UHGV virus genome: UHGV-0327156
Strand: one strand, 5' to 3'
Source: a virus
Length of the DNA stretch: 13,007 nt
In this document: piece after piece, positions 2,038-12,530 of the stretch
Layout of the letters: every line of letters begins with the position of its first letter
How positions within the stretch are numbered: position 1 is the first letter of the stretch
Notes under the pieces: model-generated
Databases searched by the model: none
Told to the model about the DNA's origin: nothing
The model's input: the letters and a program-made list of their open reading frames with translations, nothing else
Program-made: the position numbers and the translations under genes

Positions 2038-2781
2038 TTAACTGGCTTTCTTTTTCGGGCGTCCACGTTTTGCCGGTGTCACGCTCCGGGTCTTACGCGG
2101 GGTACGGGTGGCCGCTTTTGGCTGCGGCTCCGGCTTCGGTTTCAGCTCCCGCTCCAGTCGTTCAATCTCTTTTTTGACGCCTGCCTGACAGTCGAGCTGT
2201 GTCGCACGTTGCAGGTGAGCCAGCGCACCGGCGGCATCTCCACCGTCACGCAGAAACAGACCGGTGATTTTGTGCAGCTTTGCGCGCACTTCATCAGGCA
2301 TGTCAGCAACGGCGGTCAGTTCAAGGGTCTCCGTCAGCAGGCGGGTATCCACAGACTCACCGGCAGCATGAGCGCGCATGGCCGCGAGCGCCACCTCCTC
2401 GGTGAACATGTACGGCGGGGTGCGGCGGTGTTTCCCCGGCATGGTCAGACCGTACTTCAGGGCATAACGGGCAATCTCCAGCGCACCGGCAATATCGCCG
2501 GTATCCAGACGCCACAGCATGACCGTCATCAGAATGTCATCCTGTGCACCTTTGCCCTGCTCCAGCACGCCGTTCACCCACGGCAACCAGAACGGCAGCA
2601 GTTCGCGCTTTTTCGCGGCCTTCAGCTCTTTTGAATAAATCGCTTTCAGTGTGCGCTGGTCTGCGGCCAGCTTGACCAGCATCTGCTCATAGACAGTTGC
2701 ATGTCGCAGCGGGGCGGCTTCCCGCTGCGCGGTCATCGCTGCCGAGACCCGCATCATGTGGCGCTGTGCGGGACTCGTCAT
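2038..2781 (-). CDS. M: Terminase endonuclease (small) subunit gpM-like, 247 aa
   Basis: 247 aa with a basic, Lys/Pro-rich C-terminal tail; position between N and L; length as recalled for P2 gpM. Confidence 0.85.
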   Translation of the reverse strand: MTSPAQRHMMRVSAAMTAQREAAPLRHATVYEQMLVKLAADQRTLKAIYSKELKAAKKRELLPFWLPWVNGVLEQGKGAQDDILMTVMLWRLDTGDIAGALEIARYALKYGLTMPGKHRRTPPYMFTEEVALAAMRAHAAGESVDTRLLTETLELTAVADMPDEVRAKLHKITGLFLRDGGDAAGALAHLQRATQLDCQAGVKKEIERLERELKPKPEPQPKAATRTPRKTRSVTPAKRGRPKKKAS

Positions 2782-4770: not shown

Positions 4771-4943
4771 TGTCAGGAGTCCTGAATAGTGATTAGAGGA
4801 GTCACATGTCGGCATCAGTTTCCCGACGATGCGCATCCTCCGCCATCAGTCCCGGATGGCTTATCACTGACACAACAGCACCTTAGCGAATCGCGGGGCG
4901 CGACTCAGTAGCCTTGCCGTGTATTCATCACGGCGAGGTATTC
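4771..4943. promoter_or_regulatory. Divergent late promoter region between O (leftward) and P (rightward), with repeated dyad elements
   Basis: 173-bp intergenic between divergent late operons. Contains GTCGG-N10-CCGAC (4808..4827) and CCATC-N7-GATGG (4843..4859), which share a CATCAGT core 31 bp apart, plus a 6-bp perfect inverted repeat GCCGTG-N7-CACGGC (4917..4935) just upstream of the P RBS. Position of the P2 late promoters is established; exact promoter elements were not resolved. Confidence 0.55.
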
Positions 4944-6716
4944 ATGACCATCACCACAGACACCACTCTTTTACACGACCCGCGTCGTCAGGCGGCGCTG
5001 CTGTACTGGCAGGGATTTTCCGTGCCGCAGATTGCCGCCATGTTGCAGATGAAACGCCCGACGGTGCAGAGCTGGAAACAGCGCGACGGCTGGGACAGCG
5101 TTGCCCCCATCAGCCGTGTCGAAATGAGTCTGGAAGCGCGGCTGACCCAGCTCATCATCAAACCGCAGAAAACCGGCGGTGACTTCAAGGAAATTGACCT
5201 GCTCGGACGCCAGATTGAACGGCTGGCACGGGTCAACCGTTACAGCCAGACCGGCAACGAGGCAGACCTTAATCCGAACGTCGCTAACCGCAACAAAGGC
5301 GGGCGTCGCAAACCGAAAAAGAATTTTTTCAGTGACGAGGCCATCGAAAAGCTGGAGCAGATTTTCTTTGAGCAGTCTTTCGAGTATCAGTTGCACTGGT
5401 ATCGCGCCGGGCTTGAGCACCGCATCCGCGATATCCTGAAATCCCGCCAGATTGGCGCGACGTTTTATTTTTCCCGCGAGGCGCTGCTGCGCGCCCTGAA
5501 AACCGGTCATAACCAGATTTTTCTGTCGGCCAGTAAAACGCAGGCGTATGTGTTCCGCGAATACATCATCGCCTTTGCCCGGCTGGTTGACGTTGACCTG
5601 ACCGGTGACCCGATTGTCCTGGGCAATAACGGCGCAAAACTGATTTTTCTCGGCACCAACTCCAACACCGCGCAGAGCCATAACGGCGACCTGTACGTCG
5701 ATGAGATTTTCTGGATCCCGAATTTTCAGGTACTGCGTAAGGTGGCATCAGGTATGGCCTCACAGAGTCACCTGCGATCGACCTATTTCTCCACTCCGTC
5801 CACGCTGGCGCACGACGCCTACCCGTTCTGGTCGGGTGAACTGTTCAACCGGGGACGCGCCAGCGCCGCCGAACGCGTGGAAATCGACGTCAGTCATAAC
5901 GCCCTTGCCGATGGGCTTCTCTGTGCAGACGGCCAGTGGCGGCAGATTGTCACCATTGAGGACGCCCTGAAAGGTGGCTGCACGCTGTTCGACATTGAGC
6001 AGCTCAAACGCGAAAACAGCGCCGACGATTTTAAAAACCTGTTCATGTGTGAATTTGTTGACGACAAGGCGTCGGTGTTCCCGTTCGAGGAGTTGCAACG
6101 CTGCATGGTCGACACGCTGGAAGAATGGGAAGACTATGCACCCTTTGCCGCCAATCCGTTCGGCTCCCGCCCGGTATGGATTGGTTACGACCCGTCACAC
6201 CGTGGCGACAGCGCCGGATGCGTGGTGCTGGCACCGCCGGTGGTGGCCGGTGGCAAATTCAGAATACTTGAGCGTCACCAGTGGAAAGGCATGGACTTTG
6301 CCACTCAGGCTGAATCCATCCGCAAACTCACCGAAAAATATAACGTCGAATACATCGGTATTGATGCCACCGGCCTCGGTGTCGGCGTGTTCCAGCTCGT
6401 GCGCTCGTTCTATCCCGCCGCGCGCGACATCCGCTACACGCCGGAAATGAAAACCGCAATGGTGCTCAAGGCAAAAGACGTCATCCGCCGTGGCTGTCTG
6501 GAATATGACGTCAGCGCCACCGACATCACCAGCTCGTTTATGGCTATCCGCAAGACCATGACCAGCAGCGGACGCAGTGCCACCTATGAGGCCAGCCGCA
6601 GCGAGGAAGCCAGCCACGCCGACCTCGCCTGGGCGACCATGCACGCCCTGTTAAATGAGCCACTCACCGCCGGTATCAGCACCCCGCTGACATCCACCAT
6701 TCTGGAGTTTTACTGA
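4944..6716 (+). CDS. P: Terminase large (ATPase) subunit gpP-like, 590 aa
   Basis: ORF track starts at 4914 (non-ATG); the ATG at 4944 is preceded by GAGG with 5-nt spacing and gives 590 aa (MTITTDTTLLHDPRRQAALLYWQGF...). Its TGA stop overlaps the Q start (TGATG). Confidence 0.9.
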   Translation: MTITTDTTLLHDPRRQAALLYWQGFSVPQIAAMLQMKRPTVQSWKQRDGWDSVAPISRVEMSLEARLTQLIIKPQKTGGDFKEIDLLGRQIERLARVNRYSQTGNEADLNPNVANRNKGGRRKPKKNFFSDEAIEKLEQIFFEQSFEYQLHWYRAGLEHRIRDILKSRQIGATFYFSREALLRALKTGHNQIFLSASKTQAYVFREYIIAFARLVDVDLTGDPIVLGNNGAKLIFLGTNSNTAQSHNGDLYVDEIFWIPNFQVLRKVASGMASQSHLRSTYFSTPSTLAHDAYPFWSGELFNRGRASAAERVEIDVSHNALADGLLCADGQWRQIVTIEDALKGGCTLFDIEQLKRENSADDFKNLFMCEFVDDKASVFPFEELQRCMVDTLEEWEDYAPFAANPFGSRPVWIGYDPSHRGDSAGCVVLAPPVVAGGKFRILERHQWKGMDFATQAESIRKLTEKYNVEYIGIDATGLGVGVFQLVRSFYPAARDIRYTPEMKTAMVLKAKDVIRRGCLEYDVSATDITSSFMAIRKTMTSSGRSATYEASRSEEASHADLAWATMHALLNEPLTAGISTPLTSTILEFY

Positions 6717-7750
6717 TGAGCAAGAAAAAAGGGAAAACACCGCAACCTGCGGCAAAAAAAATGACCGCCAGCGCCCCGAAAATGGAGGCATTCACCTTTG
6801 GTGAGCCGGTGCCGGTACTCGACCGCCGTGACATTCTGGATTACGTCGAGTGCATCAGTAACGGCAGATGGTATGAGCCACCGGTCAGCTTTACCGGTCT
6901 GGCAAAAAGCCTGCGTGCTGCCGTACATCACAGCTCACCGATTTACGTTAAACGCAATATTCTGGCCTCGACATTTATCCCGCATCCGTGGCTTTCGCAA
7001 CAGGATTTCAGCCGCTTTGTGCTGGATTTTCTGGTGTTCGGTAATGCGTTTCTGGAAAAGCGTTACAGCACCACCTGTAAGGTCATCAGACTGGAAACCT
7101 CACCGGCCAAATATACCCGTCGTGGCGTGGAGGAGGATGTTTACTGGTGGGTGCCGTCCTTCAACGAGCCGACAGCCTTCGCGCCCGGCTCCGTGTTTCA
7201 CCTGCTGGAGCCGGATATTAATCAGGAGCTGTACGGCCTGCCGGAATATCTCAGCGCCCTTAACTCTGCCTGGCTGAATGAGTCAGCCACGCTGTTCCGC
7301 CGCAAGTATTACGAAAACGGCGCTCATGCCGGATACATCATGTACGTCACCGATGCCGTGCAGGACCGCAACGATATCGAAATGCTTCGCGAAAACATGG
7401 TGAAGTCAAAAGGCCGCAACAACTTTAAAAATCTGTTTCTCTATGCCCCGCAGGGGAAAGCTGACGGCATTAAAATTATCCCGCTCAGTGAAGTGGCAAC
7501 GAAGGACGATTTTTTTAATATCAAAAAAGCCAGCGCCGCTGACCTGCTGGACGCGCACCGCATCCCCTTTCAGTTGATGGGCGGCAAGCCGGAGAACGTC
7601 GGGTCGCTGGGTGATATTGAGAAAGTGGCAAAGGTCTTTGTCCGCAATGAGCTTATCCCGTTACAGGACAGGATTCGGGAAATAAACGGCTGGCTCGGTC
7701 AGGAGGTCATCCGCTTTAAAAACTACTCACTGGACACAGACAACGGCTGA
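6716..7750 (+). CDS. Q: Portal protein gpQ-like, 344 aa
   Basis: ATG at 6716 overlapping the P stop; 344 aa as recalled for P2 gpQ; last late gene before cos. Confidence 0.9.
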   Translation: MSKKKGKTPQPAAKKMTASAPKMEAFTFGEPVPVLDRRDILDYVECISNGRWYEPPVSFTGLAKSLRAAVHHSSPIYVKRNILASTFIPHPWLSQQDFSRFVLDFLVFGNAFLEKRYSTTCKVIRLETSPAKYTRRGVEEDVYWWVPSFNEPTAFAPGSVFHLLEPDINQELYGLPEYLSALNSAWLNESATLFRRKYYENGAHAGYIMYVTDAVQDRNDIEMLRENMVKSKGRNNFKNLFLYAPQGKADGIKIIPLSEVATKDDFFNIKKASAADLLDAHRIPFQLMGGKPENVGSLGDIEKVAKVFVRNELIPLQDRIREINGWLGQEVIRFKNYSLDTDNG

Positions 7751-7919: not shown

Positions 7920-7938
7920 GTGCTTTCCCCGCCTCGCC
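7920..7938. other. cos site (19-nt cohesive end, P2-type)
   Basis: Plus strand reads GTGCTTTCCCCGCCTCGCC, the reverse complement of GGCGAGGCGGGGAAAGCAC, which I recall as the P2 cohesive-end sequence; it lies next to the portal gene as in P2. Confidence 0.8.
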
Positions 7939-8101: not shown

Positions 8102-8998
8102 CTATGATTTCGACACAACTATTTTCCCCAAATCAAAACTAAATTCGACATCCCCATTTACGATATTTTCATTTGTCACATGCTCATCAAAAAGGTCACT
8201 AACATCATACCCCGACTGAAACACTGGGCTCATGATAGCCACGTCGGTGAATGGCTCTTTTTCATGTGTTATATAATATTGACCATAAACATTTGCAGAT
8301 TTATCTGCATCATTAAGACTAAGGACTGTTTTTGCTTTGACTTCAGGCATCAGAGAAAAATCAATATTATTCAACAAACACAGTAAGATGCCTGCTATTG
8401 CTCTCCTGTTATTATCAAGCGGCATCAAGTCCACCCCTGGAATCTCCTTCCGAAGCAATATTTTCAGCTCATTAAATAAAGAGTCGAACTTAATTGCGTC
8501 AGAACAATTGAGTAACGACAAAGCTTCATTAATCATTCGCCCTTCATTGGAACCAATTTCTGGTGTTAACTTACAAACACCATCATTAACAATATACGAT
8601 TTCTTGTTATTAAGCTTCTTCCTCGCTGTAATTACCTGCCCCCCCTTTAAGTTTAACTTCTCCTTTAAAAACTCATCACTGAACATTCTTAATTGCAGTC
8701 TGATTAATGTAGGTAAGTATTTCGGGTATTCATTTAACTCTGGTTTAACAGCATGCTTATCGCGTCCAAATTTTAAACTTAATAACAAATGATTCCTCAG
8801 CATGATATCCTTTATCTCGCCTTGATCTCTCCGATGATTATGGGCAACAAAACTCCCAATTTCAAAAATACACTTGGGCGCACTCGGCAACTCACGGGCC
8901 GTAACAAAAAGAACATCAATATCACTATCAGTGAAACTCCCATCCTTTAATCTTCTCAACACTCTCTCTATTCTTGAGATTGCTTTACTTTTATTCAT
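8102..8998 (-). CDS. Hypothetical protein, 298 aa; AT-rich accessory cargo at the P2 old/tin hotspot; candidate anti-phage defence or exclusion protein
   Basis: Clean ATG at 8998..8996, uninterrupted 298 codons, GC about mid-30s % by eye against more than 50 % in flanking phage genes. Same orientation as the early operon. No Walker A, HNH, nucleotidyltransferase or HEPN motif that I can recognise. Confidence 0.8.
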   Translation of the reverse strand: MNKSKAISRIERVLRRLKDGSFTDSDIDVLFVTARELPSAPKCIFEIGSFVAHNHRRDQGEIKDIMLRNHLLLSLKFGRDKHAVKPELNEYPKYLPTLIRLQLRMFSDEFLKEKLNLKGGQVITARKKLNNKKSYIVNDGVCKLTPEIGSNEGRMINEALSLLNCSDAIKFDSLFNELKILLRKEIPGVDLMPLDNNRRAIAGILLCLLNNIDFSLMPEVKAKTVLSLNDADKSANVYGQYYITHEKEPFTDVAIMSPVFQSGYDVSDLFDEHVTNENIVNGDVEFSFDLGKIVVSKS

Positions 8999-9055: not shown

Positions 9056-9280
9056 CCATACCTGTGACACCTGACAAACCAAATAAAAACAAAGGTACAG
9101 CGGATATTGGTATGTACAGCTATATTACACATAAACTCATGTTAGTAACATAAGATCTTCTTGTGAATATTTGTAATTTATTAGTTCACCAACATTAATC
9201 TTTCCAACCGTTATAAATCCAATCATATGCTGATACTCAAATGATGGCCAACTACCACCTCTCGCTGTTCGTTGTTCCCT

Positions 9281-9315
9281 CCAGCAGCACTGGAAGCATG
9301 TTTCAGTACTGCTGG
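9281..9315 (+). terminator. Strong stem-loop (12-bp stem, one mismatch, 11-nt loop) followed by GGTTTTCT on the plus strand
   Basis: CCAGCAGCACTG / CAGTACTGCTGG inverted repeat at 9281..9292 and 9304..9315. The U-tract is only on the plus strand, so it looks like a terminator facing against the early operon, at the junction between the conserved early genes and the AT-rich cargo. Confidence 0.35.
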
Positions 9316-9324
9316 GGTTTTCTA

Positions 9325-9528
9325 TCAACAACGTGGTAGCAGTGCAATTTTAGACTGTTCTATATCGTTAAACCGCACGTAATTATCCCGGACTATTTCG
9401 GCACACCCGACCAACTCGTCGGGCGTCAGATTTTCGTTGACCATAATCTGCTGTAGACGGTGAACAATAGCCATCAGCTTGATATTTTTAGTGTTATGTT
9501 GCGGTATCTCGCCTGGTATTCTGTGCAT
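9325..9528 (-). CDS. Small hypothetical protein, 67 aa, translationally coupled to the upstream gene
   Basis: ATG at 9528..9526 overlaps the TAA stop of the DUF3850 gene (TAATG). The ORF track's 71-aa version begins at a GTG. No recognisable motif. Confidence 0.55.
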   Translation of the reverse strand: MHRIPGEIPQHNTKNIKLMAIVHRLQQIMVNENLTPDELVGCAEIVRDNYVRFNDIEQSKIALLPRC

Positions 9529-9983
9529 TATCCAAGCCACCCGTTTTGCTTTGCACGCTCAATCTGTTCATCTGAATAGTTCCATGCTCCATCCGTGGCA
9601 ACCATTGCCCCGCCAGACATCCCCGTCTCTGGTTCATACATAACAGCAAGGCCGAGCTGATGCATAATTTCATGATTAATTCTGAATACCAGACCACGCT
9701 CACTAAGTTCTTTCCAGTTCACAATCTCATATGCGCCTGTATTAAGCAGCTCAATACTTAGCAAGACATAATCTTCCAGCCAGTCTGACAGGTCAGTAAC
9801 ATCTGTTATCCGGGCTTCAACCTTTCGCCCCGTATACACACCCTGCCCCCATTCATGCAAAATCAACGTGTCTCCGCGCTCATAATTACGGTCATTTTTC
9901 CGAAACTCTGCGCGTTTCTTTCCTTCCAGCACAAGGTCGAAATATTTTGCGTGCAGCTTTACCTCGTGAATTTTTGCCATCAT
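9528..9983 (-). CDS. DUF3850/ASCH-like (PUA-fold) protein with a C-terminal HExxH-containing extension, 151 aa
   Basis: ATG at 9983..9981 overlaps the A stop (ATGA). The N-terminus KIHEVKLHAKYFDLVLEGKKRAEFRKNDRNYERGDTLILHEW matches the DUF3850 signature I recall (HElKi...yF..vl.G.K.fE.RkNDR....GD.L.L.E). The C-terminal part contains HEIMH. Confidence 0.7.
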   Translation of the reverse strand: MMAKIHEVKLHAKYFDLVLEGKKRAEFRKNDRNYERGDTLILHEWGQGVYTGRKVEARITDVTDLSDWLEDYVLLSIELLNTGAYEIVNWKELSERGLVFRINHEIMHQLGLAVMYEPETGMSGGAMVATDGAWNYSDEQIERAKQNGWLG

Positions 9984-12265
9984 GTCCACTCCATTACTGT
10001 TGAGAATCCCGGCCACTCATCAGCGACCGGATATGTGAATTTTTTCCCGTCATAATTTACAGTCGCGCCACGCGCCAACGCCTCAAGCTCCCATCGCTGC
10101 GGCCTTATACCGTTCTGAGCAAGGTCAACGCGGATACGGGTAATTTGCATTCTTTCCGACCGGGTCAGTCTGGCCGATGGTGCAATTTCATGTGGTTTTA
10201 ACGGGCTTCCGTTTCTTTGCTGACGATTTGGCGTTCTCAGGCCGTGTTTTAATGCGCCCCTGAGCGCCCTCACAACCTCCGGGTCATTCCATTCGATAAC
10301 ACCGTCATCAACCAGATTAAGCACTGCTGCGGCGTGCTCAGAAGGTGTGGGAGCCGGTAACGAAGTATCACAACCGGTGACCTTTCCACAGTTATTGACA
10401 GGACTCCGAGGCGCGGCGATGCCGCTTTTTAAAGTCAAAGGCTCAACGACCGGAACTTTCGGCACAATGCGCCAGTCCGTCGTTCTGGTGATATGAATAT
10501 GACGCGCGCCGAGATGCGGCGCGTAAATGCCGACCACTCTCTCGACTTCTTCCTCGTACTCGTTAACGTCATCCGACGGGCTACGGGCAACCCTGACAGT
10601 CTGACAATCGCGTGGGACATTTGCCCCGCCCTGCGCGCTGATATACAACGCAAAATCACCACTGTCTGCGGCGGCGCGTGCAGCCTCGACGCGTTCGTCA
10701 AACTCATCAGCAATGCTGACGCCGCGAGGCAATTTGCGTAGTTCACGGTAAGCCCCCATTGTCGGCAGACCAACCGTTTTAAATTGCGGGATACGCCACG
10801 TTGACGCCCATGCGGTAACAGCCGCTGCAGTGTCTTTCAGCGGTCTGCCGGTATCGTTATCGAGCTGCCCATCCAGTGCATAGCCGTCGATATTTTTTGA
10901 GATGTATTTCGCGATATACCCCGCAGCACCGCCCCGATTAAGATGTTTTGCCTGAAAACGGTTTCGCGCAGCTCCTCTTTCGTCGCCATCCTCTTTGAGC
11001 GCGTAGCGACGCATGATTTCGATAATCTGGTTACGCTGGCGTGGATTACAAAAAAGCATCATATGCCAGTGCGGCGTTCCGTCGTGGTGTGGCTCGACGA
11101 CTCGCAAACCGTAGACCTGTAAATCATTATCCTTGAATGCCGTGCGCATCAGGCTCCAGATACGGCAGAGATAACGCTGCGCATCCTTTGGATTAAATGC
11201 CTCATCGTTCCAGCCGTGATTTAGCTGGACGGTTTTACTTTCGCCTTTTCCAACCTGACGTGTCGGGTGATACTTTGACGGCGCGGTCAGCGTGATAAAC
11301 ATCCCCACATCACCCTCTGCAGCGGCGTAACGCTCAATACCGGCAATGGTGTTCATCAGCTCCATCCGGCGAATTTCAGGATTAGAAATACTGCCCATCA
11401 CCTTACTGATAAGGTCGATGCGCTCGCCTGTTTCCCTGTTTTCGAGATCACACGATTTAAGAAATTCCAGATTTGCCTGGCGGCGTGCACGCACATCACG
11501 AATGGCATGTTTACTGGCATAAGGAGAACGGTCTTTATTGACCTCCCCGACAGCAATCAGTAACGCCTCATGCCAGCGCATACGCTGGCCTTTAAGCTGA
11601 CTAATCCACCACTCATCGTTAAACAGACGGGCAATGGCAGAATATGCCTGCCTCGTGGTCATCTGTCCTTTACGGTATTTTTTCCAGTAGAGAGGGGAAA
11701 TATTGAAAGCTCGTGCAGCGCCAGCAACATGACCATACAGGTGATCCTGAGCCTCATCCGTAAACAGTGATTCTTTCTCGCCATGCGCATCCACCCAGGC
11801 ATCGCTGAGTTCCTCATACATCATGAAAAGCTGCGATGAGATACGGGCGGCAAACTTTTTCAGCTCCTTGTCATTCATTCCCGGCAGGCGCGCATAGTGG
11901 TCACGCTCAGCCAGAAACAGCATCGACGCGTCGGTGTTCATTTCATGGCGCTGATTCACACGCTCAATGCGCGGCCATAAACGACGCTGAAAAGTGGATG
12001 TGAGGAAATAAAACCCGTGCACCGGGCTTTTATTGCGCCGGATGTAGTCATAGCGTGACGTAAACAGCGAGCGCAAAAAGTAAGGCAGGCGGTTAATCGT
12101 GGATAAAACACCTTGCACCTGACGCATCTCGTCACGTGTAAGGGGTCTTTCGCGCCCGACAGCCTCGCGTGGCGCGTTCCATGCATAAGCACCGGTAAAC
12201 GTCTTACCGGTGCCTGCGGCAAATGCTGACGGAGGGACAAAACGCCCGGAGGCTTTAACGGCCAT
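9980..12265 (-). CDS. A: Rolling-circle replication initiator endonuclease gpA-like, 761 aa
   Basis: The ORF track's 775 aa start at a TTG (12307); the internal ATG at 12265..12263 gives 761 aa starting MAVKASGRFVPPSAFAAGTGK..., the P2 gpA length and N-terminus I recall. Confidence 0.9.
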   Translation of the reverse strand: MAVKASGRFVPPSAFAAGTGKTFTGAYAWNAPREAVGRERPLTRDEMRQVQGVLSTINRLPYFLRSLFTSRYDYIRRNKSPVHGFYFLTSTFQRRLWPRIERVNQRHEMNTDASMLFLAERDHYARLPGMNDKELKKFAARISSQLFMMYEELSDAWVDAHGEKESLFTDEAQDHLYGHVAGAARAFNISPLYWKKYRKGQMTTRQAYSAIARLFNDEWWISQLKGQRMRWHEALLIAVGEVNKDRSPYASKHAIRDVRARRQANLEFLKSCDLENRETGERIDLISKVMGSISNPEIRRMELMNTIAGIERYAAAEGDVGMFITLTAPSKYHPTRQVGKGESKTVQLNHGWNDEAFNPKDAQRYLCRIWSLMRTAFKDNDLQVYGLRVVEPHHDGTPHWHMMLFCNPRQRNQIIEIMRRYALKEDGDERGAARNRFQAKHLNRGGAAGYIAKYISKNIDGYALDGQLDNDTGRPLKDTAAAVTAWASTWRIPQFKTVGLPTMGAYRELRKLPRGVSIADEFDERVEAARAAADSGDFALYISAQGGANVPRDCQTVRVARSPSDDVNEYEEEVERVVGIYAPHLGARHIHITRTTDWRIVPKVPVVEPLTLKSGIAAPRSPVNNCGKVTGCDTSLPAPTPSEHAAAVLNLVDDGVIEWNDPEVVRALRGALKHGLRTPNRQQRNGSPLKPHEIAPSARLTRSERMQITRIRVDLAQNGIRPQRWELEALARGATVNYDGKKFTYPVADEWPGFSTVMEWT

Positions 12266-12530
12266 ATGAGCCAAAAGCCTCTGAACAACGCTTGCTGAGT
12301 TGCTCAACCTGCGCGTTTAAATCAGCAAAAGACTTTGCGCTTCCGGTCAGAATATCGTGATGCATCAGGCCGGAAACGAGCTGGCTTAATTTCGGGTAAT
12401 AACCAACCACCGCCAGCCATTCCTGACCGGCGTTTTTACCGCTTTCCGCTCTCTTTTTCTCGTGGAGAATAAACTGGAAGCTGTCACTGGTAACGACATA
12501 ACGTTCGCCAATTTCAATACGAATACTCAT
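12255..12530 (-). CDS. Small early-operon protein, 91 aa, function unknown (P2 orf8x-like position)
   Basis: ATG at 12530..12528 with GGAGAA 6 nt upstream; overlaps the A start by 11 nt. Composition like the phage backbone. Confidence 0.7.
   Translation of the reverse strand: MSIRIEIGERYVVTSDSFQFILHEKKRAESGKNAGQEWLAVVGYYPKLSQLVSGLMHHDILTGSAKSFADLNAQVEQLSKRCSEAFGSYGR

Follow-up and report, generated by a model that had tools for sequence, protein, structure and literature searches.

What is a gene of 67 codons doing at the edge of the most changeable part of a P2-like phage genome: is it a core function of the phage, a partner of whatever cargo happens to lie beside it, or neither of the two? 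The question is raised by the window, the whole stretch of 13,007 nt that was analysed, which is a segment of a P2-like (Peduovirus) phage genome in reverse orientation. The replication initiator gene A (9980..12307, minus strand) heads a coupled chain A-orf91-orf92, in which it is followed by a long form of the orf91-like gene (9528..9983, minus strand; 151 aa, DUF3850/ASCH plus DUF7415, with a match to phrog_1812) and then by the small gene itself (9325..9528, minus strand), placed in the Wphi orf92 / PSP3 gp37 family (phrog_11386) by its reading frame, a profile match and an AF2 model. Beyond the small gene come a conserved non-coding element of ~70 nt that we call E (9252..9321, minus strand), recognised by alignment, covariation and a covariance-model match, and a 298-aa cargo gene (8102..8998, minus strand; an open reading frame with a profile match to phrog_29586), and on the opposite strand lie the portal gene Q (6716..7750, plus strand) and the large terminase gene (4914..6716, plus strand). 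The gpA-gpQ hotspot of P2 is a major reservoir of anti-phage systems. An exact copy of the 19-mer GGCGAGGCGGGGAAAGCAC, which we take to be the P2 cohesive-end (cos) sequence, lies between cargo and Q (7920..7938, minus strand; 0.01 copies expected by chance), and because cos sits between the cargo and the portal gene, the hotspot here extends from 9252 down to ~7940. This A-Q (gpA-gpQ) interval is the cos-proximal hotspot of P2-like phages, the one that holds old and tin in P2 (Rousset et al. 2022, PMC9122126).

The minus-strand frame 9325..9528 encodes 67 aa (MHRIPGEIPQHNTK...ALLPRC); its ATG (9528-9526) has A9528 in common with the TAA of orf91 (9530-9528), and its stop is the TGA at 9327-9325. 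An earlier note, made from the letters of the window, had described this start as overlapping the stop of the DUF3850 gene (TAATG, 9526..9530, minus strand), and the sequence bears it out. Upstream, the ATG of the orf91-like gene overlaps the stop of gene A in the same manner (ATGA at 9983-9980) and, because both junctions are stop/start overlaps, the frames of A, orf91 and the small gene are coupled one to the next. A Shine-Dalgarno-like GGGTGG lies 9-14 nt upstream of the small-gene start overlap, and the TAATG-type junction (GGATAATG) recurs in 55 of the 87 listed loci and is the start context of P2-type phages; the PSP3-type start context is GAGGGnGATAATATG, with a clear Shine-Dalgarno sequence. 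A promoter scan of the minus strand from 9528 to 10100 found no promoter-like site that could serve the small gene, which, with its ATG inside the orf91 stop overlap, is not organised as a moron with an upstream promoter of its own. In P2-type phages, then, the gene is placed last in the A-orf91 replication operon and translated by coupling, and its position at the end of that operon means that its product would belong to lytic growth and not to the lysogen. The proposal that it is the last early-operon gene before the hotspot is correct in that the A-orf91 operon ends with it, ahead of the variable region. The statement that it directly abuts the cargo island is not quite right, as the ~70-nt element at 9252..9321 separates its stop codon from the place where phages cease to be homologous.

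The gene had also been taken for unannotated. It is instead a hypothetical protein already on record, a member of the Wphi orf92 / PSP3 gp37 family, and not a new one: PGAP labels it 'hypothetical protein' in every sampled E. coli genome, it is called the same in many Peduovirus records, and it corresponds to gp92/orf92 of Wphi (NP_878239.1) and gp37 of PSP3 (NP_958096.1), with 68-78% identity by tblastn. Residues 1-60 match positions 1-60 of the 69-position phrog_11386 profile with E = 3.4e-39, and the family comprises 195 protein clusters at 90% identity from Escherichia, Salmonella, Citrobacter, Enterobacter, Klebsiella and Buttiauxella; the exact protein sequence of the window occurs on at least 999 contigs. 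In the AF2 model two helices (residues 10-31 and 36-63), with pLDDT of 90-95 for residues 20-50, are followed by a floppy tail, and alignment of the family leaves 22 invariant columns in the protein core; codons 1-50 are a conserved two-helix core and codons 51-67 a variable tail, as a rule basic and rich in proline. No match to the 67-aa protein was returned by Pfam, NCBIfam or PADLOC, nor by a sequence-profile search of the PDB, and a Foldseek search of the AF2 model against the PDB and BFVD gave no fold relative. Kinship to the Tum antirepressor of phage 186 was considered and dropped, as comparison showed no similarity. Two E. coli genomes in our set (H66 and H68; NZ_CP184048.1 and NZ_CM129873.1) carry divergent copies labelled 'meiotically up-regulated 80 protein', an evident annotation artefact.

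Selection on the protein is strong. In 55 distinct sequences of codons 1-50, drawn from 85 loci, mean dN is 0.044 and mean dS 0.90 (dN/dS 0.05), and pairs with dS > 0.3 give a dN/dS of 0.04; over 1117 sequence pairs the ratio is 0.04-0.05, at dS of 0.9-1.4, and the variable sites are distributed 21/13/45 over first, second and third codon positions. The earlier note had regarded conservation of the frame in related phages as decisive for its reality, and the frame is indeed kept across genera, together with the start context and the length (67-81 aa), with a dN/dS of 0.04-0.05 and the match to phrog_11386. That no functional protein is made and the frame survives merely as a recombination flank or as the 5' part of a structured RNA, for which one might point to the recombination hotspot that the gene borders and to the structured element downstream, has next to no chance of being right, being refuted by the way substitutions are distributed (variation affects 45 of the 50 third codon positions but 13 of the 50 second ones, and dN/dS is 0.04 at saturating dS), by a frame, start context and length (67-81 aa) that are preserved from genus to genus, and by the occurrence of the homologous domain within longer fusion proteins. 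Decayed or rearranged versions (…QIMVKENLTLYELVGGTEIVSDNCSRMG…), with a foreign N-terminus and element E still after them, were seen in locus L197 and in the proteins P0145, P0149 and P0150 and suggest occasional pseudogenisation.

If the gene is real, does it belong to the phage or to the cargo? We compared 87 loci with a homologue, 84 of which have a measurable hotspot. In all 87 the homologue has the orientation of A, and no conserved gene separates it from the variable region; its distance from the Q end is 0.5-5.2 kb. The loci fall into two backbones, a P2 type (A ~98% identical, long orf91) and a PSP3/186 type (A 38% identical), across both of which the small protein is 73-83% identical, with residues 1-50 almost invariant. 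Within the 84 loci the same core stands beside at least 38 unrelated cargo clusters, including nearly empty hotspots in which it lies 490-520 bp from Q, and the usual tail, …GQSRVAPPPRRR, is likewise common to many cargo clusters. The gene is nevertheless not found in every viable member of the group: the P2 reference passes from a short orf91 directly to tin with no small gene between them, phage 186 has no copy, and the gene is missing from 44 of 92 informative loci that carry element E. It is present in 372 of 5426 complete E. coli genomes, 623 of which have the P2-type A/orf91 junction, so that roughly half of P2-type E. coli prophages have it, lower-identity PSP3-type matches being set aside. 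Homology to the P2 reference stops within orf91, near 9760, and the DUF7415 C-terminal extension of orf91 (9528..9760 in the window, minus strand) occurs in P2-type loci with orf92 but not in P2; it may be that the extension, orf92 and E are gained or lost as a single block. The choice that the earlier note had offered, between an invariant core gene and one that co-varies with the cargo, is answered by synteny with neither outcome, as the gene is optional and its conserved part does not co-vary. We consider it very probable that this is a genuine, strongly conserved, optional and cargo-independent gene.

These comparisons bear directly on the first idea about its function, namely that it is a sensor, regulator, antidote or antagonist paired with the adjacent cargo. 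The gene does adjoin a defence hotspot, and the allele in the window is in part linked to its cargo. The tail of the window protein, …VRFNDIEQSKIALLPRC, ends in ALLPRC and not in the usual PPPRR[R/P], its pI is 6.8 compared with 10.8 for the common allele, and from about codon 51 onwards the whole of the window allele, including tail, hairpin and downstream flank, is divergent. Among the loci that were fetched this tail occurs solely in those with the 298-aa cargo, and the allele (at ≥99%) and the cargo are found in 25 genomes each out of 5426 E. coli genomes, a match between counts and not between lists of genomes. This is most simply read as the mark of a recombination junction near codons 50-57, with tail, hairpin and cargo arriving together, which would explain the linkage of tail and hairpin to the cargo and give the matching counts without any functional partnership. 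Only the tail allele is linked to a cargo; the core is unchanged beside at least 38 cargos and beside empty hotspots, which is not what would be expected of a sensor or antagonist working with its neighbour, and the usual tail (…SRVAPPPRRR) spans many cargo clusters. Moreover, the gene is in a lytic operon, whereas hotspot cargo is normally expressed in the lysogen from its own promoter (as illustrated by the annotated transcript starts of P2 old and tin). Pairing with the cargo is therefore largely refuted by synteny and we regard it as very improbable; a regulator in a more general sense is possible.

The cargo itself offers little to go by. The 298-aa protein has no match in Pfam, NCBIfam or PADLOC, its sole family assignment being phrog_29586, and with a presence at ≥99% identity in 25 of 5426 complete E. 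coli genomes it is a candidate for the defence hotspot. A weak sigma-70-like site, TTGGCC-18-TATGAT (9222..9251, minus strand; 9 of 12 consensus matches), which directly follows E, is a candidate promoter for the cargo gene as judged from its letters. The cassettes of the P2 gpA-gpQ hotspot were reportedly treated by Odegrip and colleagues in 2006. The small gene resembles such morons and cassettes in lying inside the gpA-gpQ interval and in being present or absent among near-identical phages, but differs from them in having no promoter of its own in P2-type phages, where it is coupled to orf91, in being far more widespread and conserved, and in belonging to the lytic rather than the lysogenic programme. 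Its closest known counterparts, Wphi gp92 and PSP3 gp37, share its family, its length and its place after A/orf91 (Wphi) or tumB (PSP3) and before the variable cos-proximal region. In Wphi, however, a 39-nt gap separates the gene from a short orf91, whereas in the window it is stop-start coupled to a long DUF3850+DUF7415 orf91, and both relatives have the usual tail …PPPRR[R/P] in place of the …SKIALLPRC of the window.

What separates the gene from the cargo is element E, defined from an alignment of many loci that took in the 3' end of the gene and a further 110 nt. Its consensus is AAACGCCGCCAGnnCTGAAACTTGyTTTCAGnnCTGGCGGGGTTGAACAACGAGCnnnGCGAGGCGTTAG, that is, a long hairpin followed by a conserved single-stranded stretch that runs to ...GGTGGTAG in the window (consensus GGGGTTGAACAACGAGCnnnGCGAGGCGTTAG). 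The earlier claim of a hairpin at 9281..9315 shortly after the stop stands as far as its core is concerned, and folding adds outer pairs to give a full stem at 9278..9317 (minus strand) that begins 8-10 nt past the stop codon. E is kept in both backbones whatever the cargo, and homology between phages ends right after its …GTTAG, at 9252 in the window. The window hairpin (9278..9317) folds with -31.3 kcal/mol (z = -4.1), and covariation is clear: 15 pairs, of which 8 show compensatory double changes, with 96.7% of cells paired, a result that none of 500 column shuffles reached on any of five measures and to which structures slid by 1-3 columns (30-53% paired) do not come close. The covariance-model match in the window (9241..9334) scores 82 bits, as against ~105-110 bits for typical copies. 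The gene strand has frequent G-U pairs and folds 6-15 kcal/mol better than the other, signs that the structure forms in RNA, or in single-stranded DNA, of the sense strand; selection of the hairpin on the opposite strand was rejected on the same grounds, the G-U pairs there becoming A-C mismatches.

Several more familiar identities for E were tried. The hairpin is a GC-rich stem-loop, as in an intrinsic terminator, but the stem is followed by AGGGAACAACG (consensus GGGGUUGAACAACG) with no U-tract on its 3' side, the terminator scan did not call it, and it is separate from the annotated terminators of phage 186, so that it is not a canonical terminator. A second helix in the 3' half of E shows no compensatory changes, and a pseudoknot between loop and tail that the alignment had suggested was dropped as sterically implausible. 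Variation in a Chi-like site (GCTGGCGG) is compensated in the opposite arm, which indicates a constraint on pairing and not on the octamer; a mimic of the gene A nick site was discarded for want of convincing similarity to the ori sequences of P2 or 186, and an antisense seed against another site found no match within the window. A scan of E against Rfam returned nothing but a chance match to mir-15 (23.8 bits, against a gathering score of 57.3).

E is not confined to the small gene. In viral contigs a pattern scan located E 129 times, in 118 loci, preceded by orf92 in 67 cases, by an orf97-like gene in ~29, by a dinI-like gene in ~23 and by the gene for a 66-aa membrane protein in 5. With the covariance model, second copies come to light: in PSP3-type phages on the upstream side of the small gene, following the dinI/tumB-like gene, and in some of the P2 type on its downstream side, following the orf97-like membrane-protein gene. 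E often stands as two direct copies, for example in L069 (5805..5881 and 6210..6286) and in L031 (6207..6283 and 7174..7250). Where orf92 is lacking the order may be, for example, A - dinI - E - cos - Q. Overall E is found in 66 phage records, all of them P2/186-type phages of Enterobacterales and usually without annotation, and searches of the P2 reference and of the phages with fusion-type relatives (described below) found no copy. In phage 186 (NC_001317) an unannotated E lies directly after orf97 (30341..30412), as it does after orf92 elsewhere, although 186 has no orf92 homologue; its terminators t95a and t95b are distinct from E, t95b lying ~25 nt downstream and having the U-tract that E lacks. 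The small gene belongs to an optional 'gene + element E' unit, the first in the cos-proximal hotspot and independent of the cargo after it, and is best seen as the first and by far the commonest such unit. E may have a part in processing or stabilising RNA, may bring about partial termination, or may be a repeat that recombines with other copies.

The most specific clue to what the protein does comes from its distant relatives. A profile search of 1.84e9 representative proteins with the small-protein family found 31 relatives, six of which (101-122 aa) consist of the N-domain followed by a C-terminal CxxC…CxxC module. This module is Pfam zf-C4_ClpX (43-68 bits against a cut-off of 27) and shares ~75% of its residues with the E. 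coli ClpX zinc-binding domain (PDB 2DS5, 1OVX). The hosts of the fusions are Serratia, Pectobacterium, Yersinia, Cedecea, Yokenella and Citrobacter. Those on viral contigs sit in distant Peduoviridae between A (28-37% identical) and Q (~44-53%), the position of the window gene (loci L088-L167; for example 7001..7369 in L088, 6977..7321 in L094 and 6980..7309 in L150). These 'ClpX C4-type zinc finger proteins' share with the window protein the position between A and Q and the N-terminal two-helix domain (xLKLxGIxxRLQxxMxNENITPxELVxCAxxVR) and differ from it in the zf-C4_ClpX finger at the C-terminus: the window protein has no Pfam match to PF06689 and only two cysteines in all (C42, C67), so that its homology to the fusions is that of the N-domain alone. 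The N-domain of the Pectobacterium-type fusion is 66% identical to the window protein, compared with 36-47% for A, Q and terminase of the same phage, a degree of conservation that, between phages so far diverged, suggests a partner in the host that is itself conserved. The AF2 model of a fusion shows a helical hairpin, a disordered linker (pLDDT < 50) and a finger domain, with no predicted contact between the domains (pTM 0.33). More divergent versions are gp19 of P88 (Xuanwuvirus; YP_009113062, NC_026014 10195..10527), whose type of N-domain has weak similarity to the window protein, and orf93 of the P1-like phage D6 (NC_050154 78777..79097); both are named 'carboxylate--amine ligase' in RefSeq, which looks like a misnomer. 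Our searches of the literature on ClpX-finger phage proteins and on orf92 returned nothing relevant, and described no phage mimicry of the ClpX zinc-binding domain.

The zinc-binding domain of ClpX is a dimerising module on which adaptors and substrates dock. In SspB a folded domain for binding is followed by a flexible linker and then by a short element at the C-terminus, which docks on this domain of ClpX. Because homologues in the same position in Serratia, Yersinia and Pectobacterium phages have the two-helix domain linked to a module that nearly copies the zinc-binding domain of ClpX, we infer a link to ClpX: the two-helix domain would bind a highly conserved host target and act through the ClpX/ClpXP machinery. 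An arrangement of domain, flexible linker and docking module would resemble that of a ClpX adaptor or anti-adaptor, which could either tether the partner to ClpX or hold it off, and in the finger-less form of E. coli and Salmonella phages the conserved C-terminal PPPRR tail could take over the docking role, a tail that the window allele would have lost. The likeness to SspB-type adaptors is one of overall layout, an analogy in the way of working; the window protein has no similarity to them in sequence or fold, and its tail, whether ALLPRC or the common PPPRR[R/P], contains no XB motif of the LRVVK type.

How far the fusions speak for ClpX itself depends on what the finger does. ClpX-type fingers are also fused to MerR and to HTH_17 (excisionase-type HTH) domains in other proteins, and the finger may be merely a dimeriser for a DNA- or protein-binding domain. 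A second possibility is accordingly a small nucleic-acid-binding regulator, in which the two-helix domain dimerises through the finger or by itself and binds DNA or RNA, for example element E, and controls either read-through from the early/SOS operon into the cargo or the processing of the transcript. The bona fide DNA-binding partners MerR and HTH_17 suggest a generic dimeriser, the common allele is very basic (pI 10.8), and ~80 of 87 loci have E after the gene, whereas those with the fused form have none. Pairing of gene and element is, however, not obligate, as 44 of 92 informative loci have E but lack the gene, and E also stands after other genes, and the co-occurrence of E with the finger-less form may reflect shared ancestry alone. 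Furthermore, Pfam, Foldseek and PDB profile searches revealed no HTH, RHH or other recognisable nucleic-acid-binding motif in the core, and the window allele is near neutral (pI 6.8). On balance we consider such a regulator unlikely.

A somewhat better prospect, if still a doubtful one, is an accessory protein for host takeover or anti-defence with a target unrelated to ClpX, such as replication, the SOS/RecA machinery or a host defence system. In its favour, the gene is a small and optional one of the early, lytic programme on which purifying selection is strong, the fused relative in P1-like D6 lies among early accessory genes of the ead/Ea22 type, and the neighbours in PSP3-type phages, tumA and tumB/DinI, are SOS-related. 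In these phages the homologue is downstream of the LexA-controlled tumA/tumB(dinI); in PSP3 (L290, NC_005340) a perfect LexA box (CTGTATAAATATACAG, locus 2697..2712) lies upstream of tumA-tumB-E-gp37-E-gp38, and SOS-induced transcription may reach the orf92 homologue. There is no match to PADLOC or to a known anti-defence family, and a target outside ClpX leaves unexplained why the C-terminal module of the alternative form should so closely copy the zinc-binding domain of ClpX in particular.

We therefore return to ClpX, without claiming that the case is strong. A ClpX-directed early accessory protein (adaptor, anti-adaptor or decoy) is the reading that we put forward tentatively, on the evidence of domain fusion and genomic context, and it may well prove wrong. 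Against it, the window allele lacks the basic tail and yet occurs on at least 999 contigs; the finger-less protein has neither a zinc finger nor an XB motif; a domain fusion is a hint that falls short of proof; and a two-helix hairpin with no fold relatives (Foldseek, PDB) says little about function. P2, for its part, grows normally without the gene. More speculative still, and a long shot in its full form, is a scheme in which the orf92 N-domain would be a ClpX-aimed phage module, fitted in some relatives with a stolen zinc-binding domain that serves as dock or decoy and in the finger-less forms with the PPPRR tail, that would reprogramme the choice of ClpXP substrates (SOS or replication factors, for example) at induction; separately, E would be the junction of 'gene + E' cassettes, and recombination between E copies would drive turnover of the hotspot cargo.

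As found, the gene is an ordinary one, a catalogued hypothetical protein, and its context is more useful than the gene by itself. First, few proteins of the P2/186 early region are as strongly constrained as its product, which surpasses the replication initiator in conservation and is yet dispensable, and relatives of it have captured the zinc-binding domain of ClpX. These fusions provide a concrete and cheap hypothesis for an uncharacterised family that is present in ~7% of complete E. coli genomes. Second, surveys that take all of gpA-gpQ as the hotspot count orf91 and orf92 in each 'system', and both should be masked. Third, with its place exactly at the junction of backbone and cargo and its copies behind one gene after another, E is a candidate handle on cassette exchange in the hotspot. 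The fusions with a ClpX-type zinc finger and the junction element with its repeats, neither of which turned up in the literature that we searched, are worthwhile leads into the biology of this family and of the hotspot that it borders.
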